From Candidatus Iainarchaeum sp. (GTDB taxonomy: Archaea; Iainarchaeota; Iainarchaeia; Iainarchaeales; UBA10219), in NCBI GenBank assembly GCA_018304425.1, contig JAGVWE010000002.1, forward strand, positions 1 to 64,000: a stretch of DNA of 64,000 nucleotides, read 5' to 3'. A program made the position numbers and the translations under genes. The notes below the pieces were generated by a model. It ran no database searches, was not told the DNA's origin, and saw only the letters and a program-made list of their open reading frames with translations. Below are positions 1 to 31,082 of the stretch, one piece after another. Positions within the stretch are counted from its first letter, which is position 1. Each line of letters begins with the position of its first letter.

Positions 1-620
1 TTGACATCCTCCCCACCCTAAAGGGTGGGGATTCCCTTTGTGTGGGAGAAGTCGGCGAGTGTGCGTTGGAACGCATCGCCTTGGTTGCGGACGTAGGCGC
101 GCATGTGGTTGAGGCCGACGTCGCCGACGGTGCGGTAGAACTTGCCGGGCGTCCACAGGTGGCCTTTGCGGTACATTAACCGCAGGTTGGGATTCAACCG
201 GAAGTACTCGTAACTGCTGCGCCCCTTCAACAGTTGTGCCGCCCGCGCCAACGACATGGCGGGCGGCACCTCGACGACCACGTGCACGTGGTCGGGTTGC
301 ACCGCCAACTCCAACACATGCATGCCGTGCGCAGCCGCGACGTTCAACAGGATGCCCTCCATGTCCCGCTTGTTCCGCTCCTTGCGGAACACGTTCCGCC
401 GGTACTTGGGAATCCACTCAATGTGGTACGCCCACTGGCCCTTGGCATGGGCGACACTATTTAAAACCTGCGCCGCTTTCATAGTGTAACACTCTCCTGT
501 CCTGGCGCGGTCGCTACCGCGCCGGACAGTTGCACTTAAAACCCAGAACAACAGAAATAGACTACGCGGGGCTCGCTCTCATCCCCGCGTTAAAACGCGG
601 GGGTTTCCCGCTCGCCACGG
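1..620 (-). mobile_element. IS200/IS605-family insertion sequence, tnpA-only
   Basis: Subterminal hairpins at both ends: CCCCACCCT-AA-AGGGTGGGG (11-30) and CCCCGCGTT-AA-AACGCGGGG (583-602). On the minus strand the right end reads ...GGAGGATGTCAA and finishes at base 1 (TCAA is the typical right-end cleavage tetramer). The left end is preceded by TTAG (621-624, minus strand), a plausible target tetramer. Encloses tnpA. Confidence 0.88.
18..482 (-). CDS. tnpA: Y1 HUH transposase TnpA (IS200/IS605)
   Basis: YHIEWIPKYRR, HUH motif PDHVH, LKGRSS, LWTPGKF and catalytic YVRNQ. Likely start is ATG 482 (MKAAQ). Confidence 0.95.
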   Translation of the reverse strand: MKAAQVLNSVAHAKGQWAYHIEWIPKYRRNVFRKERNKRDMEGILLNVAAAHGMHVLELAVQPDHVHVVVEVPPAMSLARAAQLLKGRSSYEYFRLNPNLRLMYRKGHLWTPGKFYRTVGDVGLNHMRAYVRNQGDAFQRTLADFSHTKGIPTL

Positions 621-15975: not shown

Positions 15976-16146
15976 GAAACATCACTTGGAGGGGCGGTAT
16001 TCCACTCGCCTACCGCCCCATTGAGCAAAGCGAAATGGGGCACGCCGAGCGTGCAGCCGGCGCTCTCGACCGGCTCGCCACTTGAACTGCAACGGACAGG
16101 TCTCGAAACAAGAGAGACGGGAATGCGAGTACGTCGTTCCACCCAT
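15911..16146 (-). repeat. 35-bp perfect direct repeat flanking a 165-bp insertion with a duplicated, recoded gene start
   Basis: 15911-15945 is identical to 16076-16110. The adjoining nine codons encode the same TTYSHSRLS but differ at every third position. Confidence 0.93.
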
Positions 16147-16238
16147 ACCACACAACAGCCCCCAAAAGCAATTAAAAAGCGCTGGGGGACCGAATTTCCG
16201 GTGCGGGAGCCTTGCGCTGGGCAAGGAGCGTGCTTCTT

Positions 16239-16349
16239 GGGCCTCTGCGCAATTACCCGGTGGGACGGAGGCCCAGAAACAAAGGAAACAAGCCGAAGAA
16301 GCGCCGCGAAATAACCAAACCAGGCCAAGGAACGGGTGGCGGGCGGGGC
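16239..16349 (+). repeat. Dispersed island repeat R, copy 1
   Basis: GGGCCTCTGCGCAATTACCCG...CAAAGGAAACAAGCCG...GCGCCGCGAAATAACCAAACCAGG...GGCGGGCGG aligns by eye with the copies at 18791, 27566 and 29830. Confidence 0.7.
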
Positions 16350-16356
16350 AAAGCCC

Positions 16357-16415
16357 CAACCGTTTTACCCCTACAAATTTACATATGTTTAAATATCTGT
16401 AGGTCTAAACGGTTG
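16357..16415 (+). promoter_or_regulatory. Long imperfect inverted repeat spanning the Fic promoter
   Basis: CAACCGTTT..CCTACA / TGTAGG..AAACGGTTG flank TTTAAATA just upstream of ATG 16418. Confidence 0.6.
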
Positions 16416-16417
16416 GT

Positions 16418-17368
16418 ATGGCGTATATCAAGGAGAAGACCATCGCCGGCCGGAAATACTTTTACGTGACGAAATCCGTGCGGTTGCCGGACGGCAAGGT
16501 CAAGACCCTGCAGAAGCTGGTCAAGGACCGGCGTGTTTCCCCCCAGGCGTTCGCGGGCTGGTTCGAGGAAGAGGAGAAAAAAGCATTCTGCGGCTGGGCC
16601 GCGAAAACCTATCCGGCCGACAGCGTGTTCTCGGCGGAACAAATAAGGGCGGCCGAGGAAATGCGGTTCGGGTACCGGAAAATCCTTGCCCGGCTCTCAA
16701 AGCCCCAGCTCAAGGACTTGTTCGACCGCTTCACCGTGAACTTCACGTACGAGTCGAACGCCATCGAAGGCAACTCCCTTACCCTCAAGGACGTGGCCAT
16801 CGTCCTCTTCGAGAACGCCTCCATCAAGGGAAAGGACTTGCGCGAAATCTATGAGACGCGGAACTCGCGCGAGGTGGTCGACCTCATCCTGCGCCGGAAG
16901 CTCAAGGCCACGGAGGCGGACGCCATCCGCGTGCACAAAACGCTGGTCAGGGACATGGACATTCCAACGGGCTACAAGACCGTGCCGAATTACCTGCTTG
17001 GCAGGGACGTGGAGACCACGCCCCCGGAGAAGGTCGCCGGGGCGATGGGGAAGCTCTTCGCCGACTATGAGGCCAACGAAGGGAAGCTGCATCCCGTGCA
17101 GTTGGCGGCGCGCTTCCACGGGGCCTTCGAGAAAATCCATCCCTTCGAGGACGGCAACGGGCGCGTGGGAAGGTTCCTCGTCAACGCGATGCTCGTCAAC
17201 AACGGCTATCCGCCCCTCATCATCCGGAAAAGCCAGCGCACCGCCTACATGAAGTGCTTGAACGACTTCGACCGCGGCTACGCGCGGAACCTGGAGCGGT
17301 TCCTCCTCGAAAAATACAAGGACACCTACCGGAAGTTCTTCGAAGTCTACGCGAAATACCTCAAATAA
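16418..17368 (+). CDS. Fic/Doc family protein
   Basis: FTYESNAIEGN and the canonical HPFEDGNGRVGR. N-terminal beta-strand extension (KTIAGRKYFYVTKSVR). Confidence 0.95.
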   Translation: MAYIKEKTIAGRKYFYVTKSVRLPDGKVKTLQKLVKDRRVSPQAFAGWFEEEEKKAFCGWAAKTYPADSVFSAEQIRAAEEMRFGYRKILARLSKPQLKDLFDRFTVNFTYESNAIEGNSLTLKDVAIVLFENASIKGKDLREIYETRNSREVVDLILRRKLKATEADAIRVHKTLVRDMDIPTGYKTVPNYLLGRDVETTPPEKVAGAMGKLFADYEANEGKLHPVQLAARFHGAFEKIHPFEDGNGRVGRFLVNAMLVNNGYPPLIIRKSQRTAYMKCLNDFDRGYARNLERFLLEKYKDTYRKFFEVYAKYLK

Positions 17369-17446
17369 CGGGGCCGCTGGCGCCCTCGCACGCAGCCCCC
17401 CTATCCACCCCCACGGATAGATCCATTATCGGGGATAGGCCAGGTA

Positions 17447-17495
17447 GCGCCGCCGCGAATCAACCGAACCAGGGCAGGGGACGGCTGGGGCGGGC
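17447..17495 (+). repeat. Island repeat R, copy 2 (3' half only)
   Basis: GCGCCGCCGCGAATCAACCGAACCAGGGCAGGGGACGGCTGGGGCGGGC matches 18860-18905. Its reverse complement supplies the last codons and stop of the AbiEi-like gene. Confidence 0.72.
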
Positions 17496-18071
17496 TCCAA
17501 GCAGGGCGCGGACCTTTTTTTGGGTGCGGGCCGGCGTTTTTTTAAGGAGCCCGTCAAGCGCTTTTTTGTCTAGCCTGCCCTTGATCGCTTCGAGCGCGTC
17601 AGCGGGAATTTTTTCGTTGAAGTACGCGAAGTCGATGAGGGTTTTTTCAGGCGTGGAAACGGGAATCCATTTGCCGTGGCGCTGCACCAACCCGTAGCCG
17701 AAAAACATCCTTGGGTTTACGTGCCGCACCAGGTAATTGGCGCCCAGGGCCTGCCGAACCCCGGTGCGAACCCACCTGGGCGTCACCACCACGGGGTTGG
17801 TTCCCTGATCCCAGAGGCCGTGCAGGGAAAGGGCTTCCTGCAACCCATAATAATGAGGGGCGAAGGCAAAGCCGATGACCATGGGGTCGTCGCTGAAAGT
17901 ATAGTGGCCACGGGTAATACGCTTGAGTGCGCCCTTCTTCAACAAGTAGTGGATGAGGAAGTGGAGGTAGCCTTCACTTATTTTTTTCTGTTTCAGGAAC
18001 ACGCGGCAGTCCCGCAGCGAGAACACGTTTCGCCCGGAAAAACGCGCGACGACGTCCTTCATGTACTTCAT
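17460..18071 (-). CDS. AbiEi-like type IV antitoxin / transcriptional regulator
   Basis: N-terminal wHTH (LKRITRGHY), YYGLQEALSLHGL and VSTPEKTLIDF. Confidence 0.87.
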   Translation of the reverse strand: MKYMKDVVARFSGRNVFSLRDCRVFLKQKKISEGYLHFLIHYLLKKGALKRITRGHYTFSDDPMVIGFAFAPHYYGLQEALSLHGLWDQGTNPVVVTPRWVRTGVRQALGANYLVRHVNPRMFFGYGLVQRHGKWIPVSTPEKTLIDFAYFNEKIPADALEAIKGRLDKKALDGLLKKTPARTQKKVRALLGARPSRPLPWFG

Positions 18072-18715
18072 TTCGAAAACCTCCTCCGAAGCGCGTCCGC
18101 CATTTGGGCGAAGGAAGGCACGGCGCCCGACAAGACCAGGGCATTCAGGTTTTTTTCGTCCACGGGTTGTGGCAAGGAAACCAGTTGGCCCGCCACCTTT
18201 TCCTTGAAACCCTTTTCGTTTCCCGCCAGCCGGCTCAAATGGTATACGTCATAAATGTCGCGCACCAGGCGCCTTCCCCTGAAGGCCGCGAGTTTTTCCA
18301 GCAGCAGGTCCTCGGCGCTCAACGTGAAGACGTCGAGGCTCGAACCGTCCAGTTTCTCGTATTCCCTGACGACGGGTTCCCTGAATTCCCTCAAGGCGGC
18401 CTCGAAGGCGACGTTGATGCCTTCCCGCTCGACCTTGGCGTAAACGCTGTTCGCGGTCTGCTTGTACTTCGCCAACTTCAGGCCAGCTGAAGAGATTTCC
18501 CGGGCAAACGCCTCCCTGAACCCCTTTTTCGGCACGAAATAAAAGTCCAAGTCCTCGGAAAACCGGTTGCCCTGGTAGCACCGCCAAAGGGCCGTTCCCC
18601 CGTGCAGGACCGCTTTCCCCTCCAACGCGTACACGATTTCCAGCACCTGGTCCTGGACAAAAGCGATGTCGCGGTGCAACTGACGCCGCAACCGGTTGAA
18701 CAACGGCAAACGCAT
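18068..18715 (-). CDS. AbiEii-family nucleotidyltransferase toxin
   Basis: LHGGTAL, RFSEDLDF, EKLAA and RDIYD. 4-bp overlap with the AbiEi-like gene. The inverted repeat ACCAAACATA..TATGTTTGGT (18730-18759) covers its promoter. Confidence 0.92.
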   Translation of the reverse strand: MRLPLFNRLRRQLHRDIAFVQDQVLEIVYALEGKAVLHGGTALWRCYQGNRFSEDLDFYFVPKKGFREAFAREISSAGLKLAKYKQTANSVYAKVEREGINVAFEAALREFREPVVREYEKLDGSSLDVFTLSAEDLLLEKLAAFRGRRLVRDIYDVYHLSRLAGNEKGFKEKVAGQLVSLPQPVDEKNLNALVLSGAVPSFAQMADALRRRFSK

Positions 18716-18790
18716 ACAACCATCAATCAACCAAACATATAAAAAAACCTATGTTTGGTCAATCCGACAAAACCCCCTTCAACCGCTTCC

Positions 18791-18907
18791 GGGGCCTTGC
18801 GGGATTGCCCGAGGGGAGGCAAGGCCGACCAGGGGCAAAGGAAGAAAGCCGGGAAGGGCGGCGCCGCAAATTAACCGAATCAGGGCGGGGGACGGCGGGG
18901 CGGGCGG
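18791..18907 (+). repeat. Island repeat R, copy 3
   Basis: GGGGCCTTGCGGGATTGCCCGAGGGGAGGCAAGGCCGACCAGGGGCAAAGGAAGAAAGCC...GCGCCGCAAATTAACCGAATCAGGGCGGGGGACGGCGGGGCGGG. Closest match is the reverse complement of 29830-29945. Confidence 0.78.
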
Positions 18908-18911
18908 AACT

Positions 18912-19082
18912 TCAACACCTCCTCGCCCCCCTATACCCGGCCGCGCGCGCCTCGTCGCGTGATTGGAAGCACACGCAGTTTTCGGAGAAGATGCGGCGGG
19001 CGTAGCTGCAGTGGGGCGCGTGGTAGACGTTCGAGTGCTTGCTGCCGACGAAGGCGCAGACGCCGCAGGCGGCGGGTTGGGC
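18912..19082 (-). pseudogene. 5'-truncated Ada metal-binding-domain fragment
   Basis: Manual translation: ...CAFVGSKHSNVYHAPHCSYARRIFSENCVCFQSRDEARAAGYRGARRC*. No start codon; in-frame TAA at 19083-19085. Confidence 0.72.
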
Positions 19083-19163
19083 TTATACTCAATGGATGGC
19101 GCAGTCAGAAAGGCCCAACCGTGGCCAATAGTCGTTTAAAACATTGAGCCTATTACAGATACA

Positions 19164-21947
19164 ATGTATTCCAAAGAGGAAGCAAAAAAGATTATCGCTG
19201 CGCTGATTGCAAAATACGAAAAGGTAGTGGCTGAGGGCAAATTAAAGGACTACAGTGAAGCTGAAACACAACGCGGATTTATCGAGCCGCTCTTTAAAGC
19301 TCTTGGTTGGGATATTGAGAATAGAGAAGAAGTCTCACTCGAAGAGACCATTTCTAAGAAAAGGGCCGACTATGGTTTTAGAATAAATGGTGCACCCCAA
19401 TTTTACCTGGAAGCAAAACCGCTCAAGGCCGATTTAGAAAACATCAACTACGCATACCAAGTCATTAACTATGCTTGGACCATGGATTGCACTTGGGCCG
19501 TCCTAACAGATTTTGAAGGATTAAAAATTTATAACGCTGAATGGAAAGCCAAGCAGCCAAAGGACCAACTTTTTCTCCCATTTAAATATACTGATTATCT
19601 GGACCGTTTTGATGACCTTTGGCACCTAAGCAAAGCAGCTTTTCAAGAACATGCGCTAGATACTTTGGCGGAACGGTACGGAGGAAAAACTAAGCGGGCT
19701 AACATTACCTCACAAATATTTAATGACTTTATGGCTTGGCGCCTTTTGCTAACTAAAAATATTGCAAAAAACAAGAATGCATTGGATGAAGAAACATTAG
19801 ATGAGGCCGTACAAAGACTACTCGACAGGCTTATATTCATTCGAGTGTGCGAGGATAGGAAAATAGAACCGGAGTCGTTGAGGCAAGATTTTAGGCTTTG
19901 GCAGGCAAACAAGAAAGGCCGATCATTATCCTCAATTCTTGCCGAAAAATTCAGAAAATTCGATAAAATTTACAATAGTAAGCTATTTGCACCCCACCTT
20001 TGCGAAACACTTAGGATCGATGAAGATGTCTTGGAACAGATAATTGACGAATTATACGAAAAAGTCGAGAACGGCACCCCAATCCATCATTACGATTTCT
20101 CCATAATTGAATCCGACGTGCTCGGCAATATTTATGAACAATATTTGGGCCACATACTAAGAAAGACCGCACAGCGTGCCACGCTGTCGGAGAAAAAACA
20201 ACACAGAAAAGAAATGGGCATATTTTATACTCCAACCTACATTGTTGATTACATCGTAAAGAATACTATTGGGGAAAAAACGAAAGGACTCGAAATTAGC
20301 CATTTAACAAAAATAAAGATCCTAGACCCTGCCTGTGGGTCCGGCTCATTCTTGATCAAGGCTTTCGACCAATTGGTGGGGACTTATCGAAACAAGCTTA
20401 AAAATGAAAATCTTTGGTTAATTAAATCAGAAATCCTGACAAAAAATATTTATGGGGTTGATTTGGATGAAAAGGCCGTTGAAATAACTCAACTAAATCT
20501 CTTGCTTAAAGCCCTTGAAAAAAGAGAGTTGCTTCCGGACCTATCCGATAATATCAAGTGCGGAAATAGTCTCATTAGCAACTCATTAAACTATAAGAAA
20601 AACTTCGTTTGGAACGACGAATTCAAAAAAGTGTTCGACGCAGGCAAATTTGATGTCGTAGTTGGAAATCCACCCTACGTCAGACAAGAGGAGCTTAGCC
20701 CGTACAAGAAGCTTTTGGAAAGCTATGAAACGTACCATAGCATGGCAGATCTCTACGTCTATTTCTTTGAAAAAGGCATGAAAGTCCTCAAAGAAGACGG
20801 GCTCTTGGGTTTTATTGTTTCCAATAAGTTCTTGAAGGCTGGCTACGGTAAAAACCTGCGCAAATTCTTGTCTCAATACCACATTTGTGAATTCATAGAC
20901 TTTGGAGATCTCCAAGTATTCAAAGATGCAACAACATACCCTTGCATTATCATACTCAAACATAGAAAGGAATTAAACCCAAAAATTAAAGTAACAAAAG
21001 TATTGACATTGGACTTCGATAGCCTCACAAATTACGTCCAACAAAACTCATTTCTTGTCAATCAAAATAGCCTCGATAATGAAAATGGATGGAACTTCGA
21101 AACTTCACAAACCAGCGCACTAATAGAAAGAATCAAAGCAAATACCACCCCCCTCAAAGATTATCTCAAAAACCAAATTTACTGGGGCATTAAAACAGGT
21201 CTGGGCAAAGCATTCGTTATTGATGGCAGCACAAAGAATCAGCTAATCGCCGAAGATCCAAAAAGCACTGAAATAATTAAGCCATTTTTATCTGGCCGAG
21301 AAATCCGGCGTTATTCAATAATTCAGCCGAGCGAATATGTTATTTTTACCCGACGCGGGATAGATATTGAAAGGTACCAAGCAGTAAAAAAACACTTAGA
21401 AAAGTTCCGACAAGAATTAACCCCTAAAAAAAGCGCCGAGCAAAAAATAGGTCGCAAACCTGGCCCATACATGTGGTATGAAATTCAAGACTCGGTCGCT
21501 TATTATAAGGAATTCGAAAAACCAAAAATTATCTTTGGAATAATGACGACCCAGCCCAGATTTACGTTAGACTACGACGGCTATTACGCAAATAATGCCA
21601 ACTTCATCATCCCATTAGAAGACAAGCATCTGCTAGGAATTCTGAACTCAAAAATGGGCTGGTACCTTGTCTCGCGAATCTGCACTCAAATAAGGGGCGG
21701 TTATCAACTTATATGGCAATATTTCGGCAACTTCCCGGTTCCCAAAGCAAGAGACCCAAAAATCGAAAAGCTCGTTGAAAAAATGCTCGAACTGGCACAA
21801 AAAATCGCCGCACTTAGAGATAAGGAAACGGATGAGAAAAGGAAGGCTGAGAAAGTGTTTCAGACAGTTGATTCTGAAATCAATCAACTCGTTTACAAAT
21901 TATATGGGGTAACCGAAGAAGAAAAGAAAATTATTGAGGGTTCATAA
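19164..21947 (+). CDS. Type IIG restriction-modification enzyme (REase + m6A MTase + TRD)
   Basis: N-terminal HsdR_N-like nuclease (ADYG...LEAK...LTDF), GIFYTP, ILDPACGSGSF, VGNPPY and TaqI-C-like KPKII. The segment is AT-rich. Confidence 0.93.
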   Translation: MYSKEEAKKIIAALIAKYEKVVAEGKLKDYSEAETQRGFIEPLFKALGWDIENREEVSLEETISKKRADYGFRINGAPQFYLEAKPLKADLENINYAYQVINYAWTMDCTWAVLTDFEGLKIYNAEWKAKQPKDQLFLPFKYTDYLDRFDDLWHLSKAAFQEHALDTLAERYGGKTKRANITSQIFNDFMAWRLLLTKNIAKNKNALDEETLDEAVQRLLDRLIFIRVCEDRKIEPESLRQDFRLWQANKKGRSLSSILAEKFRKFDKIYNSKLFAPHLCETLRIDEDVLEQIIDELYEKVENGTPIHHYDFSIIESDVLGNIYEQYLGHILRKTAQRATLSEKKQHRKEMGIFYTPTYIVDYIVKNTIGEKTKGLEISHLTKIKILDPACGSGSFLIKAFDQLVGTYRNKLKNENLWLIKSEILTKNIYGVDLDEKAVEITQLNLLLKALEKRELLPDLSDNIKCGNSLISNSLNYKKNFVWNDEFKKVFDAGKFDVVVGNPPYVRQEELSPYKKLLESYETYHSMADLYVYFFEKGMKVLKEDGLLGFIVSNKFLKAGYGKNLRKFLSQYHICEFIDFGDLQVFKDATTYPCIIILKHRKELNPKIKVTKVLTLDFDSLTNYVQQNSFLVNQNSLDNENGWNFETSQTSALIERIKANTTPLKDYLKNQIYWGIKTGLGKAFVIDGSTKNQLIAEDPKSTEIIKPFLSGREIRRYSIIQPSEYVIFTRRGIDIERYQAVKKHLEKFRQELTPKKSAEQKIGRKPGPYMWYEIQDSVAYYKEFEKPKIIFGIMTTQPRFTLDYDGYYANNANFIIPLEDKHLLGILNSKMGWYLVSRICTQIRGGYQLIWQYFGNFPVPKARDPKIEKLVEKMLELAQKIAALRDKETDEKRKAEKVFQTVDSEINQLVYKLYGVTEEEKKIIEGS

Positions 21948-22156
21948 TGAGCTATGCCCCAACATCGCAAAAGATGGATGTCACGTGCCCTAAGTGCACA
22001 ACTGCGGGAGAAGTGTTATGGTTTCCATCAAATAAAGTAAAAATAGAACTGCCTGGCACCAGATCCGGTAAAACCACCGCCTGGTCCGGCCGCGGCGAAA
22101 CCGTCGAAGGCGCCTGCTCCAAGTGTTGGTACAAGTTCACGGAAGACGATTTGTGA
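21947..22156 (+). CDS. Small zinc-ribbon protein
   Basis: CPKC and CSKC pairs. TAATG coupling to the R-M gene. Confidence 0.6.
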   Translation: MSYAPTSQKMDVTCPKCTTAGEVLWFPSNKVKIELPGTRSGKTTAWSGRGETVEGACSKCWYKFTEDDL

Positions 22157-22216
22157 GCCAGCAGACTCGAATTAAAGCTTTTCGTTCATCCCACATGCAG
22201 TGCGCGGGGTTTTGGT

Positions 22217-23440
22217 TTGGGGCCAGTGAATCGGAAGGACTGGGGTAAATTTATCTCCCCCAGCGTCGATAAGCAGACCCCGTTTTATCGCTGGTATCTG
22301 TACAAGCACGGCTATTCTAAGCGATTGGTCGAACAAATCATAGCCAAATTCAAGCTCAAAGCTGGGCAGAGCGTGCTGGACCCTTTCTGCGGGGGCGGGA
22401 CCACGCTCCTAGCAGCCGCCGAAAACGGGCTCAATGCGGTCGGCTTCGACATAATGTCGTTCCCAGTGCTCGTCTCCAACACGAAAATGCTGCGCCCGAG
22501 CGTCTCTAACGTAGAGAAATATGAAAAGAAATTTACGCTCGAAAAAATAAGGGTCACAAAACCATACTCGCTGCCCGACATCAAAATATTTGAGAAAGCG
22601 TTCAATAAAAAGACGTTGAACTTCTTGCTGAAATTCCGTGGAAAAATCGACGACATAAAAAAACCGGCACTTAAGAACATCTTCCTACTGTGCTATCTGA
22701 AAACGTTAGAAAAGGCTGGCCGAGCACGGAAAAGCGGGGGGTTCCTTCGGCTTACAAAAGCTAGGAACGCTTCACAGAAGAAAATATTCACCCAATTCAC
22801 CAAATTCTTGGACGAGGTCAAGACAGATTTGAAAGCTGCAAGCAAACTAAAAGGAAAAGCGCAAGCAAAAGTTGGTGACAGCCGAAAAATCTCCAGCAAA
22901 CAGAAATTTGATGCAGTGATTAGCTCGCCACCCTATCCGAACCGGCACGACTACACGCGGGTCTATTTGCTCGAAGAAGCGTTAGGGTTCAACAAGAACG
23001 ACAAAGAAATCAAATGGCTCCGATACAAGACGCTGCGCTCGCACGTCGAAGCCAAAAAGCAAAAATTCGACGCGACGGGATATGTAAGGCCCGCCAAGTT
23101 GACACGCGCCATTAAAAAATTAGAAAAAAAAGACCTAAACAACCCCAAAATCGTCGAAATGATTGACGGATTCTTCGAAGATATGTATCTAACTCTCAAA
23201 AATGTCAAAGGTTGTGTCAAAGCCGGCGGGAAAGTGGGCTTTGTAATAAGCAACGCGCGCTACGCCGGTGTGCCGGTTCTAACAGATGAAATACTCAGGG
23301 ATGTAGGTAAACAAGCAGGCCTAGCCACCAAGGAAATTATCTTACTCCGAAATAGAGGGAATAGCAGCCAACAGATGAAAGAATACAATCGACTACCAGC
23401 CAGAGAAAGCCTAGTCATTTTTGAAAAGAGTCTTGGCTAA
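22217..23440 (+). CDS. DNA amino-methyltransferase (probable m4C)
   Basis: RWYLYKHGYS, motif I VLDPFCGGGTT preceding motif IV SSPPY. Start uncertain. Confidence 0.9.
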   Translation: MGPVNRKDWGKFISPSVDKQTPFYRWYLYKHGYSKRLVEQIIAKFKLKAGQSVLDPFCGGGTTLLAAAENGLNAVGFDIMSFPVLVSNTKMLRPSVSNVEKYEKKFTLEKIRVTKPYSLPDIKIFEKAFNKKTLNFLLKFRGKIDDIKKPALKNIFLLCYLKTLEKAGRARKSGGFLRLTKARNASQKKIFTQFTKFLDEVKTDLKAASKLKGKAQAKVGDSRKISSKQKFDAVISSPPYPNRHDYTRVYLLEEALGFNKNDKEIKWLRYKTLRSHVEAKKQKFDATGYVRPAKLTRAIKKLEKKDLNNPKIVEMIDGFFEDMYLTLKNVKGCVKAGGKVGFVISNARYAGVPVLTDEILRDVGKQAGLATKEIILLRNRGNSSQQMKEYNRLPARESLVIFEKSLG

Positions 23441-24547
23441 TTCATCGCTGATAACTTCCCCCGTTTTTTTATATTTGCCAAATGATTTAAGAAGAAACTC
23501 GTGCCGTTTAGTCACAGACGGCTTTTCTACTGATGCCTGCAAGACATATTTGTGGAAGTAGTCAAGCACAGCTTTATTTGTTGGAGCTTTAAAGTCACGC
23601 AGGAGCTTCATTTGATTCTTTATTTCTCTTATAAGCCTTAAATAAAACTGAACAAATTTCGAAACATCGTTGCGCCGGCCTTCATTAATTAATTCTTCAA
23701 CAAATAAATAAGCCGATACTGCCACAGCTCGACTAGATATAAGTTCCGCATCCTTTCCAAATTCTTTATCCATAACTTCCAATACGGCCTCAACATGTTT
23801 GATGCTTTTTGAATCTGCACCAATTTTTTTATATTGCTCAAAATCATTTGCTATATCTTCATAACGGGCCCTACGAAACTCACCGGAAATTCGTTTTGAA
23901 AACGAATTAAGCACCATTTGCGCCAGAGCAAACTCACGAGAAAAACGTTTAAATGAAAGTTTTGTGTGACGAAAAAATAACATGTCTCGGCCTTTAACCT
24001 TAAAAATAAAGTCCCTCAAATCACCAGTCATTGAATGCAACGACTCACCGGATTTTAATGGATCCCCAAGTTGTAACCTGGCAAACGTCTCACGAATAAG
24101 TTTATCGTCTGGCTTTACCAAAATACTAAAATCCAATTTATACTCGTCAGTAATAAACTTAGCAAGTTTGTTTTCCTTCTGTTCAAGTTCACGATAGCTA
24201 AATTCTGGCGCATCTTTTTCTTCAGTCAATTTAACCTTTAATGGTCGCCTTGGAGAAAAATCATCGCCAAAATACGAGGGCTTAAAAAATTCAACGATTG
24301 CCGTAATCCGCTGCTTACCATCAATGCACTCGTATACATCGTCTTTCGTTTCAGCCAAATATATTTTAGGGATGTCAATATCCTGAACCAGTGAATTAAT
24401 TAAACGGGCCTTTTTCCAAGGTGGCCAAATCTCCTCACGCTGATAGTCCGCATCCAAATCGATAAGAGGAAGCCATTTCTCAATGAAGTCCTGAACGTTA
24501 ATCTGAACACTTTTCCTTTTTTTAGATTGATACGCCATAAAAATCAC
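23411..24547 (-). CDS. DUF262 (GmrS/ParB-like) domain protein
   Basis: DYQRE..W, LINSL...IPKIYL, IDGKQR and FARLQ.G.PL. No HNH/DUF1524 motif is visible in the C-terminal half. Confidence 0.88.
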   Translation of the reverse strand: MIFMAYQSKKRKSVQINVQDFIEKWLPLIDLDADYQREEIWPPWKKARLINSLVQDIDIPKIYLAETKDDVYECIDGKQRITAIVEFFKPSYFGDDFSPRRPLKVKLTEEKDAPEFSYRELEQKENKLAKFITDEYKLDFSILVKPDDKLIRETFARLQLGDPLKSGESLHSMTGDLRDFIFKVKGRDMLFFRHTKLSFKRFSREFALAQMVLNSFSKRISGEFRRARYEDIANDFEQYKKIGADSKSIKHVEAVLEVMDKEFGKDAELISSRAVAVSAYLFVEELINEGRRNDVSKFVQFYLRLIREIKNQMKLLRDFKAPTNKAVLDYFHKYVLQASVEKPSVTKRHEFLLKSFGKYKKTGEVISDELAKTLFKND

Positions 24548-25584
24548 ATCTTACAAACAACTTTTAACTTGGTGCTTTGCATACTGTTTGGAGGCAGCAT
24601 TAATTTACATTTTGCAGCAAGCCAGACCTTAAATGGGTTGGCATCCCAATTGGTTTTTGCATTATTAATCGCCTGAGAAAATTGAAGCCTGCCATGTTCT
24701 ATATTAAGCATTTTATCTATATTCGGAAAAAACCCCAAGGCCTTTCGTATTTCAATTCCAGAGTCATCAAAATCAATCAATTCAATTGTAAATCCATGTT
24801 TACGCTTTAGATGTGCCTTAAACAACAAATTAATGAGGCCTGCATCGTTTTTGTCAAACGAACAGCCAATAACACGTAACACATCACATTCGGCAAGAAC
24901 TTCTGCGGCCTTTGCCCAAATAAGATTATAAGGTTCCTCAGAGTACTCTTTTTGTGTGCCTGGCGGAATCCAAGGAACATTAAGTCCTGAGTCTTCCCAC
25001 TCAAAGGAACCATGCAATTTTAATAAAGACATCCCTTTTTTCGCACAAGAAGACGTATGATTGCAATACGGAATGTCCTTTGTTTTTACGTTGTAGACGC
25101 TCCGGTAAGCTCTGTCAAGCAAGCCATCATAATTCAAAGTCATATATGCTAATACTTTCTCTTTTTTGGCAATATTTTTTAGCTGATGGAAAAAAAGAAG
25201 AGCTGAATATAATGTTGGCTTAACAGTCTTCCCATCAACCAACAAATGAGTGGTAATGTCCTTTTTCACTAGGTTTCGCAATGCATTAGCATGCTCATGA
25301 GACCCTTTACGCCTACTCGATTCTATAAGCGTAATAAATTGTTCGATATTTGCTGGCCTGTCTGATAGAACACGTATTAATGCATTCTTCACCCTGTGCA
25401 ATTTTTTTGACTTATTTAAAGCCTGGTGGATACGTTCAGAAATATTGCTTGTAAGCAGCCCCTTTTTTTCTTTAATGTCTTGTGAGAGCTCAGAGCCGTA
25501 CGAATACATAACTTCTGCATGAGTAGCTCCAGCACCAAACAAATAAGCAATTCGGAGGGGTGTGGATGTTCTCGCTTTTTGCAT
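24544..25584 (-). CDS. SIR2-like domain protein (NADase effector candidate)
   Basis: YLFGAGAT, TLNYD, LKLHGS, IPPG..K and VIGCSF..ND. GTGA overlap with the DUF262 gene. Confidence 0.85.
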   Translation of the reverse strand: MQKARTSTPLRIAYLFGAGATHAEVMYSYGSELSQDIKEKKGLLTSNISERIHQALNKSKKLHRVKNALIRVLSDRPANIEQFITLIESSRRKGSHEHANALRNLVKKDITTHLLVDGKTVKPTLYSALLFFHQLKNIAKKEKVLAYMTLNYDGLLDRAYRSVYNVKTKDIPYCNHTSSCAKKGMSLLKLHGSFEWEDSGLNVPWIPPGTQKEYSEEPYNLIWAKAAEVLAECDVLRVIGCSFDKNDAGLINLLFKAHLKRKHGFTIELIDFDDSGIEIRKALGFFPNIDKMLNIEHGRLQFSQAINNAKTNWDANPFKVWLAAKCKLMLPPNSMQSTKLKVVCKM

Positions 25585-25629
25585 ATACTATGACTCCTCG
25601 AGCAAAACTACTTATAAATTTCACCCAGT

Positions 25630-25684
25630 GTCCTTCTTTTTCCGGTCGTCCTTCTCGTCCTTCCGGGTAATCGCGTAGGCCCTT
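25630..25684 (-). repeat. Island repeat R, copy 4 (5' half only)
   Basis: Minus strand AAGGGCCTACGCGATTACCCGGAAG...AAAAAGAAGGAC, near-identical to the start of copy 5. Confidence 0.75.
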
Positions 25685-25699
25685 CGTTGGTTGGTTGCC

Positions 25700-25756
25700 T
25701 GGTTTTTGCACGTTGTCCTGCCAAAACTGATCGGTTGAGCCAGCGTAGAGACGCAT
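25700..25756 (-). pseudogene. Short gene-start remnant (MRLYAGSTDQFWQDNVQ), possibly DUF2075-like
   Basis: ATG 3 bp after the MazG-like stop. From recollection the peptide resembles N-termini of DUF2075 proteins that commonly follow this pyrophosphohydrolase. The frame runs into repeat R4. Confidence 0.45.
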
Positions 25757-25759
25757 TAA

Positions 25760-26122
25760 CTATAATTCCGAGTATTTGGCGTTCTTTCCTTTCGCCTTCC
25801 CCACCGGATACTTCTGCTCGTTCTCCTGCATCTTCGCTTCCAGCGCTTCGGAGAGGTCGATGTCGAGCATTTGGCTCATGCGGAGGAGGAAGTAGAGGAC
25901 GTCCGCCATCTCGTGGCCGATCCCGGCCTTCTTCTGGGGGTCGGCCAGCAGGGCCTCGATATCGGCGTCGGACTTGAAGCGGAACTTTTCCAGCAGCTCG
26001 GCGGCTTCCGTGATAATCCCGATGGAAAGGTCCTTGGCGCCGTGGAACCGGTCCCAGTCCCGGGCCTCGCAGAAGGCCTGGACTTTGGCTTTCAACTCCT
26101 GCAGGTTGGCCTTGGAGTCCAT
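25760..26122 (-). CDS. MazG-like nucleotide pyrophosphohydrolase
   Basis: RDWDRFH..KDL...EAAELLE.F, HEMADV and KMQENEQKYP. Confidence 0.93.
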   Translation of the reverse strand: MDSKANLQELKAKVQAFCEARDWDRFHGAKDLSIGIITEAAELLEKFRFKSDADIEALLADPQKKAGIGHEMADVLYFLLRMSQMLDIDLSEALEAKMQENEQKYPVGKAKGKNAKYSEL

Positions 26123-26362
26123 GCCAAAAAATTGATCCCAACAGGTTAAAACCTCTCACGCCACCCAACCCCACCAAAACACGTTTTTCCGGCAAATGAC
26201 GTGTTTTTATGTTTTTTGGTTCTAGTGGAAATATCGCCTGTTACAACAGCCGATAATTGGCGATTATTGGATGCTATACCATTCAATAATTGGAAACCGT
26301 TGATTTGGCACCGGAAACCTGGTCTAGGGGCGTTTTTAAAGGCGTGGAGGGAAGAGGGGTTT

Positions 26363-27076
26363 ATGGAGGAGAAATTCGCGTACTGGGAGTTCGTGTTGAA
26401 GGGCGCGAACGCGCACGACATACATGGCGTGCAACTACGAGAAAATATCAGGAAGCTTGCCGTGGACGCCGGCGTTCCAGGCGATGTACGCAACGTGAAA
26501 AAGGACCATACTGTCCTTGTTCGATGCAAAGCCCCTGAAGAGCAAGCGGAGAGATTGCTACAAACCATACTGAAAATACCGGACGCGCTCATCAAGTTGC
26601 ATCCCACCGACTCGTTCAAGAGAAAAATGACGAGCGAAGGCGGCGAGCCGCCCAAAATCCCCGACGAGTTCGAAATCATCCGCGAAGACGAGCTCTCCGA
26701 AATGGTGTGGGCGCTGCAGGGCGCTGGAAAGATTTTCGCGGGAGGCGAAAAGTCACGGGAAAGGAAATTGACCCAGGCCCTCAAGCTGGCGTTAATCGAA
26801 ACCAGCGCGTGCGCGGACGAGCATAACCGCGGCACGCCAAACAACCGGAACTTCGTCGTGACCGCGCTGGAGAACTTCATCTCCACCGGCCCCGTAGAAG
26901 ACACAGACCTGGTGAAACAAGTCTATGACCTCTATCAACTATGCGGCCAAGCCAATGAATACCTTAGATTGGCGTTATCTGGGCAGCGCACGCAAGACAA
27001 AGTGAAAGAGTTAAGCGAGCAAATCTTGAAATTGGCGGGCAAGATTTTGGAAAATCTTAATAACCAGAAGGGGTAA
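26363..27076 (+). CDS. Acylphosphatase-like-domain protein with a helical C-terminal extension
   Basis: G..HDIHGVQLR...GVPGDVRN..D.TVLV...FEIIR resembles a degenerate acylphosphatase fold. Start ATG 26363 after GAGGGG. Confidence 0.6.
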   Translation: MEEKFAYWEFVLKGANAHDIHGVQLRENIRKLAVDAGVPGDVRNVKKDHTVLVRCKAPEEQAERLLQTILKIPDALIKLHPTDSFKRKMTSEGGEPPKIPDEFEIIREDELSEMVWALQGAGKIFAGGEKSRERKLTQALKLALIETSACADEHNRGTPNNRNFVVTALENFISTGPVEDTDLVKQVYDLYQLCGQANEYLRLALSGQRTQDKVKELSEQILKLAGKILENLNNQKG

Positions 27077-27088
27077 AGGGGGTATGGG

Positions 27089-27562
27089 ATGAAAAACTTT
27101 CAAAAAATAATGCAAGCCTTCAAAGCCTTGAACGGCAAGGAGCTCGACATGGGCGAATACGAAAACCGGCTAAGGCTGCAAAAAATCGTCTATCTCTTGC
27201 AGGCGGCCGGACTGAAACTCGGTGGCTATCCTTTCTACTGGTACATCAAGGGCCCCTATTCGCCCGCCTTGACTAAATACATCTTCGAATCCCTCGACAG
27301 ACCAAGAACGGCGCATAAAGGCGAGGGCCTAGATACAAGGGAAAAACGCGTGGTGGAAAAACTAAAGACCACGCTTGAAGATGAAATGAGAGACGCCAAG
27401 CAATTAGAACTCTTGGGTTCGCTTGTCTTCATCCGGAACGACGAAAAAGTACGGGACAAAGCCGAGCTCCTAGAACGAATGTATTCGAGGAAACCCTGGT
27501 ATTCGAAAGCGGAAATTGCGGCTCAAATTGAAAAGATTGAGGCGTGCGGGCTATTCAACTAA
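27089..27562 (+). CDS. Panacea/SocA (DUF4065)/YwgA-like protein
   Basis: RLRLQKIVYLLQ, YPFYWYIKGPYSPAL and LELLGSL. Confidence 0.75.
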   Translation: MKNFQKIMQAFKALNGKELDMGEYENRLRLQKIVYLLQAAGLKLGGYPFYWYIKGPYSPALTKYIFESLDRPRTAHKGEGLDTREKRVVEKLKTTLEDEMRDAKQLELLGSLVFIRNDEKVRDKAELLERMYSRKPWYSKAEIAAQIEKIEACGLFN

Positions 27563-27565
27563 GTA

Positions 27566-27675
27566 CCCGCCCCCCGTCCCTCGCTCAGATGGGCGTCCAT
27601 CGGGGCGCAAGGCTGGCCGTCCTTCTTTTTCTTTTCCACCGGGGCGGTGCGCTTCGGGTAATCCCGTAGGCCCTT
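27566..27675 (-). repeat. Island repeat R, copy 5
   Basis: Minus strand AAGGGCCTACGGGATTACCCGAAG...AAGAAAAAGAAGGAC...GCGCCCCG...GAGCGAGGGACGGGGGGCGGG. It fills almost exactly the gap between two convergent stop codons. Confidence 0.75.
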
Positions 27676-28036
27676 ACCCCGTTCCGCCCATCTTCTTCCA
27701 TTCGTTTCGTTGTTTTTGTCGTTCTTTTTGTTCTTGTTTTTTTTGTTTCGCGTTTTCTTTGGCTTGTTTTTGTTTTTCGCGTTGGTCGTAGTCTTGTTCT
27801 TCTTTGAAGCCTTTGGGGTCGAGTTCCAGGTAAATGGTTTTCCAGGCCCGGGGATAGCGTTCTTGGACGTCCAGGTAATGCATGTGGCCCGCCCACCCCA
27901 GCCGGCTGCCACTCAAAATCCCGGCCTCCAAAAGCATTAAGTCTTCGACGTACGCGCGCCGCCGGGAAGTAAACGGCGCGCCCTTAATCGCTTTCCTGAT
28001 GAACTCCGACTTAATCGACGAAAAACCTTCGCCCAT
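27674..28036 (-). CDS. Hypothetical protein with a charged coiled-coil tail
   Basis: 120-aa ORF from ATG 28036 with a K/Q/E-rich C-terminus. Confidence 0.65.
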   Translation of the reverse strand: MGEGFSSIKSEFIRKAIKGAPFTSRRRAYVEDLMLLEAGILSGSRLGWAGHMHYLDVQERYPRAWKTIYLELDPKGFKEEQDYDQREKQKQAKENAKQKKQEQKERQKQRNEWKKMGGTG

Positions 28037-28242
28037 ACCAGCACTCCCGCGGGCCAAGTAAAAAAGGTTTTTGGTGCAAAACCCAGGGGAAAACCGCTCC
28101 CAACCGGGCCGGTTAACCCAAGCCAGGCAAGCCGGGCCACTCCCTTCGCCGGGCCAACGCCACGCAACCGGTCCCGTCAGCGAGCTGCTTCACCAAGGGC
28201 TTCCGCCGAGGGGAGGGAAGGCATGGAAGCAAGGGAAAGACG

Positions 28243-28276
28243 AACAAAATATAAATAGTTCGACGATTGACGTATT
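28243..28276 (+). promoter_or_regulatory. Island motif M copy 3
   Basis: AACAAAATATAAATAGTTCGACGATTGACGTATT. Confidence 0.75.
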
Positions 28277-28362
28277 ATTATAGATTAAAGGGGCCTTCAA
28301 GCGATAGAAATATAAAAACTATCAACAACTATAGTTATTATCAATATTTATTGATAGTTGTG

Positions 28363-29010
28363 ATGGAAATGGTTTCCCTGAAAGCCCCCAAGACCTTTGA
28401 AGTGGTGGAAGCGATCCTGGAACAAAAAAAATTCACGCAATTGGCGTTGAGCAGGCAAGTCGACGCCTCCTTCGGCATTGTCAACCGCACCACCCGCTGG
28501 CTCGAAGCGAAAAACTACGTCAAGAAGACGGGCAAGTTCTATGAGCTGCGGGACCCGGCCGGCATCCTGTCCTCCCTCGCCGTGTTCCGCGACATGAAAT
28601 CATTGATCATCGACGAAGTCACGGTCAGCCTGACGCCCGCGCAAATAAAGGGCCTCCTCCCCCCCGACCGGGTCTGTTACTGCCTGGAGACCGCGCTGGA
28701 AGAATACTCCAATTACTTCCGCGCCAACCGCGTGTGCGTGTATGTGGACAAGAAAGACGTGCCCCGGCTCCTGGCCCTGCTCGAAAACAGGAAAGGGCCT
28801 GGCACGCAAGTCGTCTTCTACGAGGAAAAGCCGCCCGTCAAAGGGAAAAAACCGACGCTGCCCGAATTCAAGGACACGCAGACGACCAATGAAAGCATCA
28901 ACCGCTGGTACACGCCGCGCACGCGCACGGTCATCGACCTGGTGTGCGACAACAAAGCCTACGCGGCCCAGGACCTCTTCATGAGCCTGTGGGGGATCAA
29001 GCTTGCCTGA
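28363..29010 (+). CDS. Winged-helix protein, AbiEi/type IV antitoxin-like
   Basis: FTQLALSRQVDASFGIVNRTTRWLE HTH, YELRDP..IL and RTVIDL. Inverted repeat AACTATCAA..TTGATAGTT at 28317-28359. Overlaps the NTase gene. Confidence 0.75.
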   Translation: MEMVSLKAPKTFEVVEAILEQKKFTQLALSRQVDASFGIVNRTTRWLEAKNYVKKTGKFYELRDPAGILSSLAVFRDMKSLIIDEVTVSLTPAQIKGLLPPDRVCYCLETALEEYSNYFRANRVCVYVDKKDVPRLLALLENRKGPGTQVVFYEEKPPVKGKKPTLPEFKDTQTTNESINRWYTPRTRTVIDLVCDNKAYAAQDLFMSLWGIKLA

Positions 29011-29800
29011 GACCTCATACGCCGGCGACTATCGCCCGGAAGTCACCGACCTCTCCCGCGAAGAACTCCGCAACTTCCTGGACTGGTGCGCCAAACTGCT
29101 CGGCTACGAACCCACCATCATCGGCGGCTGGGCGGTCTACGCGCACGTGCCGGGACATCTCGGCTCCAGGGACATCGACGTGGTGTTCCCCACCAACCGA
29201 GCCATCGACGAAGTCATGGACAGATACTACGCCTACAACGGCTTCAAATGCGAGGGCGACCTCGAAAAGACCTTCCACAAGGAAGCGATGGTCGACGGAA
29301 AGACCGAGAAAATAATCTACGACGCGACGAGCTACGAGCGGAGGAATCGGCTGAAGGAAAAGGACTCCATCGAAATCCCCTGGAACCTCATCGAAACCCA
29401 CAAGGAACGCAAAGACCTGGCCGGCTTGAGCCTCTGGACGCCCAGCCTCGAGCTCCTCCTATTGTACAAGGTGAAAGCCTACCGGGACAGGAGCCATGAG
29501 CTATTGCACAAGGGCCTGCTCATCACGCCCGGCGACCGGAACCGGCTCAACTCCAAGATATGGAAGGACGCGGAGGACATCAAGGCGCTCGACGGCCTCG
29601 GAAAGACGGGCAAGAAGGAATTGAACCAGCTGCTCCGACAAACGGGGTTCAAGGAATATTACAAGGAAACGATGCGAGAAATCAGGCGGGTTTCACAGGA
29701 CTGCACGAAATGCGGCAAAACCATCCGGGCCGGCAACCCCAGCCAATTGAAAATCAACGTGGCACTGCACCTCAAAAAACACGAGATAGACGGCTACTAA
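29003..29800 (+). CDS. Pol-beta-superfamily nucleotidyltransferase (AbiEii-like) with a C-terminal C2H2-like finger
   Basis: IIGGWAV, SRDIDVV, LLLYKVKA and KDAEDI. The tail reads CTKC-x19-HLKKH. Confidence 0.82.
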   Translation: MPETSYAGDYRPEVTDLSREELRNFLDWCAKLLGYEPTIIGGWAVYAHVPGHLGSRDIDVVFPTNRAIDEVMDRYYAYNGFKCEGDLEKTFHKEAMVDGKTEKIIYDATSYERRNRLKEKDSIEIPWNLIETHKERKDLAGLSLWTPSLELLLLYKVKAYRDRSHELLHKGLLITPGDRNRLNSKIWKDAEDIKALDGLGKTGKKELNQLLRQTGFKEYYKETMREIRRVSQDCTKCGKTIRAGNPSQLKINVALHLKKHEIDGY

Positions 29801-29829
29801 GGGAAGAATTTTTCGTACACGCCGTGCAA

Positions 29830-29945
29830 CCCGCCCCGCCGTCCCCCGCTCGCAATCGACCTAATTCGGCGGGCGCTGCAGGGCTCGCTTCCTTTCCTCT
29901 TGGTCGGTCTCGCCTCCGCCCAGATGATCGCGCAAGGCCCCCGGA
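29830..29945 (-). repeat. Island repeat R, copy 6
   Basis: Minus strand GGGGCCTTGCGCGATC...GGAGGCGAGACCGACCAAGAGGAAAGGAAGCGAGCC...GCGGGGGACGGCGGGGCGGG, collinear with copy 3. Confidence 0.78.
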
Positions 29946-29961
29946 GAACCAAGACAAGCCG

Positions 29962-29995
29962 AACAAAATATAAATTATTCGACGATTGACGTATA
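29962..29995 (+). promoter_or_regulatory. Island motif M copy 4
   Basis: AACAAAATATAAATTATTCGACGATTGACGTATA. Followed by the perfect 18-bp palindrome TAATTAAACGTTTAATTA (30026-30043) before the antitoxin. Confidence 0.75.
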
Positions 29996-30044
29996 TTAGG
30001 ATAAAGGGAATCCACCGAAACGATTTAATTAAACGTTTAATTAT

Positions 30045-30287
30045 ATGTCGGGTATGGTGCAAGTGGTGTTGTCTTTGAAGCAGGAGACCGAGCAGAAGCT
30101 GCGCAGGATGGCTCGGGAACTCAAGGGCGGAAAGAAGGGCGCGCTCTCCGCGGTCGTGACCGAGGCGCTCGACGAGTACGAGCAACGGGCCCAACAGATG
30201 CTGGCCCTCGAGAAGCTGCGAAAAATCGCGGACAAGGGCTTAAAGCTCGGCATCACGAAATTCAACCGGGAAGACGCCTATGACTAA
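30045..30287 (+). CDS. RHH antitoxin (paralog of 12985-13257)
   Basis: VVLSLKQETEQKLRRMA...GGKKGALSAVVTEAL...FNREDAYD. Confidence 0.85.
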   Translation: MSGMVQVVLSLKQETEQKLRRMARELKGGKKGALSAVVTEALDEYEQRAQQMLALEKLRKIADKGLKLGITKFNREDAYD

Positions 30288-30708
30288 CGAGGAGCCCATG
30301 CTGGTGGACAGCAACGTCCTGATCTACTTGGTCGACCACTCGGATGCGACCAAACACGCCGCGGCCCGCCGGCTGCTGGAAGAAATCATCCGCCACCCGC
30401 AAAACTATGTCGTGGCCACCCAGAACCTGCGCGAATTCGCTTCCGTGGCTCTCAAGAAGATGGGCCTCGACTACGCGGAACTCCTGGAAGCCTGCGACAC
30501 CTTCACCCGAAGCTTTGGCCGGATCCTGAGCGACACCGTGCGGGACGCCGTGGAAGCCTTCGCCCTCGCCAAGCGAACCAATTCCAGCTATTGGGATGCG
30601 CTATTAGCCAGCACCATGACCCGCAACGACGTGCACACCATCCTCACCGAAGACGAAAAGGACTTCAAGAAGTTTCCCGGCCTCGAAGTCATCAACCCAT
30701 TCAGGTGA
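30280..30708 (+). CDS. PIN-domain (VapC) toxin (paralog of 12588-13028)
   Basis: LVDSNVLIY, QNLREF, YWDALL and TEDEKDF. Confidence 0.92.
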   Translation: MTNEEPMLVDSNVLIYLVDHSDATKHAAARRLLEEIIRHPQNYVVATQNLREFASVALKKMGLDYAELLEACDTFTRSFGRILSDTVRDAVEAFALAKRTNSSYWDALLASTMTRNDVHTILTEDEKDFKKFPGLEVINPFR

Positions 30709-30710
30709 GG

Positions 30711-31007: not shown

Positions 31008-31082
31008 AGCGTTCGGCGATTGTACCAGTTTCTTGGCCATGATTTATAAGCCTTTTACCTTCCATTGCATGCGGGAAAAAAA

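Follow-up and report, generated by a model that had tools for sequence, protein, structure and literature searches.

A non-coding repeat at the joints of toxin–antitoxin and defence modules in a Candidatus Iainarchaeum genome

Here we analyse a repeat of about 115 nucleotides (nt), termed R, that recurs between the genes of a toxin–antitoxin (TA) and defence island in Candidatus Iainarchaeum sp. (GenBank assembly GCA_018304425.1). The window, meaning the whole stretch of DNA analysed, comprises 64,000 nt of contig JAGVWE010000002.1 (positions 1 to 64,000). Whole-genome searches show that the R family is real, clustered and independent of its cargo: six of its seven copies (R1 to R6) fall within 13.7 kb of the 1,477-kb genome, an arrangement to which a rough scan-statistic estimate assigns about 3e-9, and the seventh (R7) lies on another contig. 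R is non-coding and unstructured, lacks the hallmarks of known recombination sites, and is an old family with no sign of present activity. The best reading is that R is a lineage-restricted, non-coding two-block seam repeat marking the joints of independently acquired TA and defence modules. As the likeliest single origin, held tentatively, we propose that the copies are decayed seam or att-like relics of the stepwise accretion of these modules.

A small repeat family clusters in an accessory island

The window is part of contig C1 of a 1.48-Mb genome in seven contigs (58-59% GC), and its accessory stretch is flanked by Pfam-assigned genes for an ACT-domain protein (11952-12581) and an NAD kinase (31766-32476). 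The original prediction, an earlier reading of this DNA, had placed six related intergenic copies in the island, the left three pointing right and the right three pointing left, with a shared order of motifs and no copy beyond the island. Covariance-model placement (Table 1) recovers all six, at or a few bases from where they had been put, and bears out both the + + + - - - orientation and the motif order. The last claim stands for the window, which holds no more copies, but not for the genome: a scan with an nhmmer model of R1 to R6, that is, a model made without R7, returned a significant family with a seventh copy on contig C5.

When each copy was left out of the model in turn, whole-genome searches recovered R1 to R4 at E values of 2.3e-10, 2.1e-5, 1.8e-18 and 0.096 and R5 to R7 at 1.9e-4, 1.2e-9 and 8.1e-12; six of the seven thus return at E <= 2e-4, and the half copy R4 is marginal. 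A gapped consensus pattern has three matches in the window and none in 100 shuffles. Neither the window nor the 1.48-Mb genome yields a further copy, the next matches having E >= 0.3 and lying in coding sequence, and fuzzy searches with either end block found no solo 5′ or 3′ block in the genome. Rather than being scattered genome-wide, the copies sit in the island and, in the case of R7, at an accessory locus with a MazE/AbrB-type antitoxin gene and its 90-amino-acid (aa) partner on one side and a weak ribbon–helix–helix (RHH) gene, an HNH_3 endonuclease gene and a NUDIX gene on the other. Both loci being accessory, the data support confinement of R to accessory TA and defence loci.

Two conserved blocks in divergent copies

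Full copies measure 112-127 nt, with 61-71% GC and 59-69% purine on the strand named sense; the lengths matched by the consensus pattern are 108, 106 and 104 nt. The 5′ block (GGGCCT..GATTACCCG) consists of GGGCCT, 2-4 variable bases and a GSGATTACCCG-like motif, the middle holds a purine-rich box followed by a GCGCC box, and the 3′ block is G-rich (GGGACGG..GGGGCGGG). The blocks are separated by sequence that varies and by indels of 1, 2 and 4 nt. Such lengths, none divisible by three, leave the copies without a common reading frame, and a protein-coding origin was rejected.

Compared in pairs, the copies are 49-75% identical over the 5′ half, with R3-R6 (75%) closest, and 38-78% identical over the 3′ half, with R3-R7, R2-R3 and R2-R7 (75-78%) closest; at this divergence, the copies are old. 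R7 combines a 5′ block of the R4/R5 type with a 3′ half that groups with R2 and R3, and the halves of the family are mildly mosaic. The two half copies, R2 and R4, are complementary, with breaks that lie within about 15 model positions of each other. R2 and R3 end on the 3′ side in a canonical G-quadruplex (G4) motif, defined as four G>=3 tracts separated by loops of 1-7 nt, as the original prediction had noted; R7 does so too, whereas the 3′ ends of R1, R5 and R6 lack the motif. The genome contains 121 such motifs.

Copies occupy intergenic joints between unrelated modules

The copies lie, as predicted, at module boundaries, in intergenic joints between unrelated modules. R1 and R7 both occupy divergent gaps, that of R1 separating the PD-(D/E)XK gene (-) from the Fic gene (+), and end 29-42 nt upstream of the TTTAAATA box of the co-oriented gene; in R1, about 40 nt separate the G-rich end from the Fic TATA box (16388-16395) downstream. 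Boxes of the TTTAAATA type lie about 26 nt 5′ of start codons. R2 occupies the convergent gap between the Fic and AbiEi genes, and AbiEi runs into it, its final ~12 codons and stop codon falling within the repeat. R3 lies about 60 nt from the AbiEii start (18730, -), its G-rich end being 5 nt from the stop of an Ada_Zn_binding fragment. The SIR2 TATA box (25611-25618) is within about 10 nt of the R4 break, and R5 constitutes the entire gap between the stops of a convergent 157-aa open reading frame (ORF) and 127-aa ORF. R6 has its G-rich end 27 nt from the stop of a DUF6036-like nucleotidyltransferase gene and its 5′ end 10 nt from the promoter/operator, a member of the D2 family described below, of an RHH-PIN pair. 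In R2, R3, R5 and R6 the G-rich end thus lies 0-30 nt from the stop codon of an opposite-strand gene, and no one orientation rule covers all seven copies.

Within the arms, neighbouring copies are spaced by 1.1-1.4 kb and 1.9-2.3 kb, and R3 is 6.7 kb from R4; the two arms do point toward the low-GC core, as had been claimed. Damaged genes had also been described beside the copies. The AbiEi stop inside R2 and the Ada fragment at R3 are as described; a 17-codon remnant at R4 was not verified as the remnant of a gene. About 100 nt to the left of R1 there is a 62-nt direct duplication at 85% identity (15911-15972 and 16076-16137), in which the 5′ end of the PD-(D/E)XK gene has been copied into intergenic DNA.

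AbiEii and the second nucleotidyltransferase of the island are 25% identical, and their two helix–turn–helix (HTH) partners are not significantly alike. The neighbours of R are unrelated or anciently related and the copies of R are far more alike; R therefore did not spread by duplication of a gene together with its flank, and segmental duplication of this kind was rejected.

R is found in one genome

The genome is the sole member of its family among the genomes compared. A BLAST search with R3 against 40 relatives gave no match outside its own genome. A sequence-only covariance model gave one match in 150 genomes of the order (E 0.0044, in coding-looking sequence and judged to be chance) and none in a phylum sample of 150 genomes. 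No copy of R was therefore found in the scan of related genomes proposed by the original prediction, across samples of 40, 150 and 150 that overlap. A stricter pattern matched 19 stretches in species-representative genomes, all bacterial and none at E <= 1, the strict pattern found nothing in viral contigs, and blastn found no match among plasmids and phages. A loose pattern matched at least 119 metagenome stretches, none of those listed at E <= 0.01; this pattern is too loose to say much.

Proposed relics of stepwise accretion

The scars beside R, namely the Ada fragment, the 62-nt duplicate and the half copies, lead us to regard the copies as relics of recombination at joints, and we infer that they arose through recombination at the joints of modules. 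The clustering of the copies, the accessory nature of both loci, the unrelated neighbours, the complementary halves with the R4 break at the edge of the low-GC block, the mild mosaic and the lack of a common reading frame also speak for this account. Copies would have multiplied when recombination, at or beside one already in place, inserted a module or exchanged it for another. This could have proceeded through portable homology, at a time when the copies were more alike, or through att-like duplication, the responsible recombinase being unrecognisable today. The complementary half copies R2 and R4 would have been generated by illegitimate events at this one element.

Several results weigh against this account. 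The copies have no dyad symmetry, and the best dif-like dyads of 11-(5..8)-11 reach 6-9 of 11 matches, at differing positions, and are equalled by 37-288 of 300 shuffles; as no conserved position carries a dyad that outdoes shuffling, a dif-like site was rejected. A regular-expression search of both strands of 12000-32000 for attC R″/R′ core pairs (RYYYAAC...GTTRRRY, 50-150 nt apart) returned none. Across the whole genome, PF00589 matches include none adjoining the island; they are a Xer-like gene at C1:397 kb, 370 kb away, and one disrupted gene that lies in two parts at contig ends (window 590-1405 and C7:98-319). The orientation of the copies is mixed. No exact run common to any two copies exceeds 20 nt, and at an overall identity of about 50-78% such runs are poor material for the homology anchors that the original prediction took present copies to be. 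The coincidence of the R2 and R4 break points is expected by chance about once in four, hence a hint only, and block-wise conservation could reflect a present function in cis.

The remaining points come from metagenomes and from the low-GC core. DNA of this genome is present in groundwater and soil metagenome runs. Parts of 15900-25800 occur in 17 runs, none on record as RNA; in five runs, which come from four studies, 97-100% of the words sampled from this stretch are present, and these may be the source sample. Four other runs with a partial share (X6, X7, X9 and X10), compared over 13000-32900, are not island variants: their contigs, short and of low depth, match the window with 0-2 differences. 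In these shallow data no joint or structural variant is listed, and among 32 of the 221 contig pieces four bridge R2, R4 or R5, all of them colinear. The current gain and swapping of cassettes that had been predicted is not what these contigs show.

The low-GC block (19100-25625) has 38-45% GC, against about 59% around it, and contains a type IIG restriction–modification (R-M) enzyme, a zinc-ribbon ORF, a DNA methylase, a GmrSD_N/DUF262 protein and a SIR2_2 protein. It is the clearest recent arrival in the island. Its right edge coincides with the R4 break. On the left the block stops where the Ada fragment has lost its 5′ end, some 200 nt past R3 and not at a repeat. Because this edge lies inside the Ada fragment, entry of the block did not use R3. 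Both borders fit a single illegitimate insertion or replacement, and not an exchange between two repeats; such an event would have taken away the R4 3′ half together with a promoter and the beginning of the Ada-like gene. A contig of run X10 has an entry of six letters between 19195 and 21911, which would skip most of the type IIG gene, and this entry is absent from the joints table; another X10 contig matches to 18957, just past R3, and continues with 255 unlike letters. These oddities could be a deletion variant together with a relative's Ada-like gene, or noise.

Regulatory and mobile-element explanations

Less probable than accretion relics, and the best placed of the alternatives, is a role for R in cis, in regulation or at transcript ends, as a shared upstream module, as a 3′ untranslated region (3′-UTR) or terminator on the C-rich strand, or as a small RNA, with blocks kept for protein binding or a G-quadruplex. 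Its conservation is block-wise rather than uniform. R1 and R7 end shortly upstream of a promoter box, the R4 break adjoins the SIR2 TATA box, and four of the six copies with a G-rich end (R2, R3, R5 and R6) start 0-30 nt past a stop codon, as a 3′-UTR does. The G4 motifs of R2, R3 and R7 also suit this explanation, as does the fact that the genome keeps other long promoter-type modules, namely D2 and a tRNA-linked hairpin module of 42 members. Yet no single orientation rule accommodates the seven copies, other TA loci of the genome are without R, and by inspection a TATA-like box lies about 30 nt upstream in one of the six copies with a 5′ end (R6) and a T>=4 run within 30 nt downstream in two of six.

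Tests of RNA structure also run counter to a regulatory role. Rfam returned only two tRNAs at gathering score across the whole window, and none of its families matched R at E <= 5 at three loci. No conserved fold emerged: the RNAalifold consensus has -3.96 kcal/mol and 13 predicted pairs, most of them broken in one or two of the five sequences. Folded singly on both strands with 200 shuffles each, the five full copies gave z values of -1.93 to +0.89 and folds that differ, and among separately folded halves only the R1 5′ hairpin beats shuffles. The copies have neither a family match nor a conserved structure with covariation; the shared 3′-UTR/terminator or small RNA that the original prediction gave as its alternative stays a less probable candidate.

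Somewhat more doubtful is a decayed small non-autonomous mobile element, resembling a miniature inverted-repeat transposable element (MITE), a palindrome-associated transposable element (PATE) or a BOX repeat, that made mostly local hops and whose parent has been lost. R spread independently of its neighbouring genes, is strictly intergenic at two unlinked loci and is modular, with half copies, and the genome has a history of transposon activity in the form of an IS200-type Y1 transposase ORF (window 18-551, -). Against a mobile origin, no terminal inverted repeats or subterminal hairpins are conserved in the copies, inspection of their flanks found no target-site duplication, the genome contains neither a parent element with R-like ends nor solo ends, and six of the seven copies are packed into one 13.7-kb stretch. 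A PATE of the resident IS200-type element was rejected, its perfect hairpin ends being unrelated to R and solo ends absent. The transposase ORF, with perfect hairpins on both sides, lies inside a tyrosine-recombinase gene, the disrupted PF00589 gene noted above, whose N-terminal part (-) is beside a tRNA-Thr gene (1451-1524, -) and whose C-terminal part is the one on C7. The first 99 bases are identical in contigs C1, C4 and C7.

Replication-origin or origin recognition box (ORB) repeats, an idea prompted by a GC-skew minimum near 30 kb, were rejected: the Cdc6_C matches are at C3:40 kb and C1:200 kb, outside the window, and intervals of 1-7 kb, occupied by genes, separate the R copies.

Comparison with known systems

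Chromosomal integron arrays carry attC sites, such as the ~120-nt repeats of Vibrio cholerae. R resembles these arrays, and the clusters of attC sites lacking integron-integrases (CALINs), as a repeat of ~100-130 nt that punctuates short TA-rich accessory modules, with copies that are related within the genome, a spacing of <4 kb within each arm and four copies that start right after a stop on the C-rich strand. Identity between attC copies of sedentary integrons is usually higher than that between R copies. R is unlike an integron array in its lack of R″/R′ cores and of a single-strand hairpin, in its mixed orientation and in the absence of IntI. An attC or CALIN identity was rejected on these grounds, with no integrase adjacent, in a test that combined regular-expression core sites with folding; the original prediction had likewise held the copies not to be attC-like, and their folding is no better than that of shuffles. 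According to Ghaly et al. 2022 (PMC9668308), the single-strand fold of archaeal attC sites is essential, and R departs from the CALIN arrangement given there of one orientation with <4 kb spacing.

On Acinetobacter plasmids, pdif sites are 28-bp sites with an 11-6-11 dyad in alternating orientation (PMC6449649), and pdif/dif modules are Xer-dependent, with no integrase of their own (PMC6449649, PMC13141974). These modules share with the R island discrete accessory modules, often TA pairs, bounded by short conserved sites without a dedicated integrase gene, and they are the nearest known integrase-free cassette logic. R differs from them in being ~115 nt long, in having no dyad better than shuffles and in showing no alternating orientation.

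BOX, enterobacterial repetitive intergenic consensus (ERIC) and repetitive extragenic palindromic (REP) or bacterial interspersed mosaic element (BIME) repeats occur in tens to hundreds of dispersed copies and form stable stem-loops. R is like them in being non-coding, intergenic and lineage-specific, in having sub-blocks that also occur alone and in its uncertain function, and unlike them in its seven copies, six of which are in one island, and in its lack of a conserved fold. Serial integration at one hotspot leaves duplicated att sites that bracket successive accessory blocks, forming tandem genomic islands. Direct and partial copies of R similarly bracket blocks, as the half copy R2 and R3 bracket the AbiE pair; R is unlike such duplicates in being without a linked integrase or tRNA target, far more diverged than fresh att duplicates and present in both orientations.

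It is improbable, in our view, that R is the seam of an undescribed archaeal cassette system, in which small self-promoted TA and defence modules, each with one asymmetric ~115-nt site, would be captured and shuffled by a host factor encoded outside the island at a mid-element crossover (between the purine-rich box and the GCGCC box, where both half copies break), two arrays having grown outward from a central platform later overwritten by the low-GC R-M/SIR2 block. Least credible of all is the view of the original prediction that integrase-free exchange of cassettes is active at R, with a G4, an R-loop or homology starting the swapping: copies at module joints, arms that point toward a foreign low-GC core, three copies with G4 motifs, complementary half copies and damaged genes alongside would suit it, but the four runs show no joints or alternative arrangements, the copies are too diverged and their exact runs too short, R was not found in the sampled relatives or, by strict pattern, in representative genomes and viral contigs, nor in plasmids or phages, the left low-GC border is not at a repeat, and three of the six 3′ ends carry no canonical G4 motif. 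What probability remains lies with explanations not thought of.

Island content and other repeats

The genes of the island and the repeats discussed here are collected in Table 1. Two ORFs without a firm family follow the MazG-like gene. The window also holds a fibrillarin gene (33922-34593), and the Cdc6_C profile matches only archaeal control genomes and the present genome. Together with the TTTAAATA boxes in front of start codons, these features mark the genome as that of a small archaeon. At either edge of the island lies a PIN gene; the two are 74% identical over 74 nt at their 3′ ends (12598-12668 and 30625-30698) and are in inverted orientation; such inverted paralogues could mediate inversion of the whole island. 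Cumulative GC skew over 1-64000 drops to ~30-31 kb and then climbs, a course that follows the change in coding strand where the island ends on the right.

Table 1 Repeat copies, motifs and genes in the island and at related loci
Feature	Position	Strand	Basis or remark
R1	16235-16346	+	Full-length; covariance model
R2	17430-17496	+	3′ half only (model positions 55-121); covariance model
R3	18788-18906	+	Full-length; covariance model
R4	25624-25686	-	5′ half only (model positions 5-69); covariance model
R5	27563-27677	-	Full-length; covariance model
R6	29828-29945	-	Full-length; covariance model
R7	C5:119015-119142		Seventh copy, other contig; nhmmer, E 1.2e-10
G4 motif in R2	17472-17494		
G4 motif in R3	18883-18904		
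PIN	12588-13028	-	Pfam
GNAT	13112-13945	+	Pfam
MazF-type toxin	14357-14779	+	Pfam
PD-(D/E)XK nuclease	14785-15975	-	Pfam
Fic	16418-17368	+	Pfam
AbiEi	17460-18071	-	Pfam
AbiEii	18068-18730	-	Pfam
Ada_Zn_binding fragment	18915-19082	-	5′-truncated, without start codon; profile positions 17-62 of 65
Type IIG R-M enzyme, Eco57I/MmeI-like	19164-21947	+	Pfam
Zinc-ribbon ORF	Inside low-GC block		
DNA methylase	22217-23440	+	Pfam
GmrSD_N/DUF262 protein	23411-24547	-	Pfam
SIR2_2 protein	24544-25584	-	Pfam
MazG-like protein	25760-26122	-	Pfam
157-aa ORF	27089-27562	+	
127-aa ORF	27674-28057	-	
HTH protein and DUF6036-like nucleotidyltransferase	28267-29800	+	Nucleotidyltransferase 29003-29800; Pfam
RHH-PIN pair	30045-30708	+	Pfam
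D2 copy, window	13333-13370		
D2 copy, window	14152-14190		
D2 copy, window	28237-28275		
D2 copy, window	29956-29994		
D2 copy, elsewhere	C5:118924-118976		
D2 copy, elsewhere	C1:124983-125026		
D2 copy, elsewhere	C1:213026-213069		

Members of the D2 family consist of a TATA-type box (AAAATATAAAT) and a palindrome (TTCGNCNATNGNCGAA). Those in the window lie directly 5′ of TA-type operons (GNAT, the MazF pair, the HTH-nucleotidyltransferase pair and the RHH-PIN pair), and the member on C5 stands ~50 nt ahead of R7 and is not followed by a gene. D2 resembles a shared promoter/operator, and a common regulator of unrelated TA modules is possible. Homology of R to the left flanks of D2, prompted by a resemblance seen by eye (28190-28245), was unsupported: nhmmer --max at E <= 100 returned only a piece of R6 in the D2c flank, in one of seven flanks.

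A second dispersed module has 42 members at 74-100% identity, two in the window (37062-37167 and 59204-59322) and 40 in further places. Its hairpin arms covary (for example GTCCCATGC/GCATGGGAC, GGCCTATGC/GCATAGGCC and GTGCCATAC/GTATGGCAC), and a palindrome, CCTTTTGTAAAAAGG, adjoins the hairpin. The copies viewed directly adjoin tRNA genes, before or after them, and the module may be a conserved tRNA promoter or terminator module.

Implications

Little is understood of how defence and TA genes build up in the hotspots of archaea with very small genomes, and few joints defined by their sequence are known apart from integrons and Xer-dependent modules. With its seven old copies in a single genome, the family is a lead and not a demonstrated system. 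A joint repeat that is not palindromic and whose spread does not depend on its cargo would, if true, suggest another route by which such islands are assembled.

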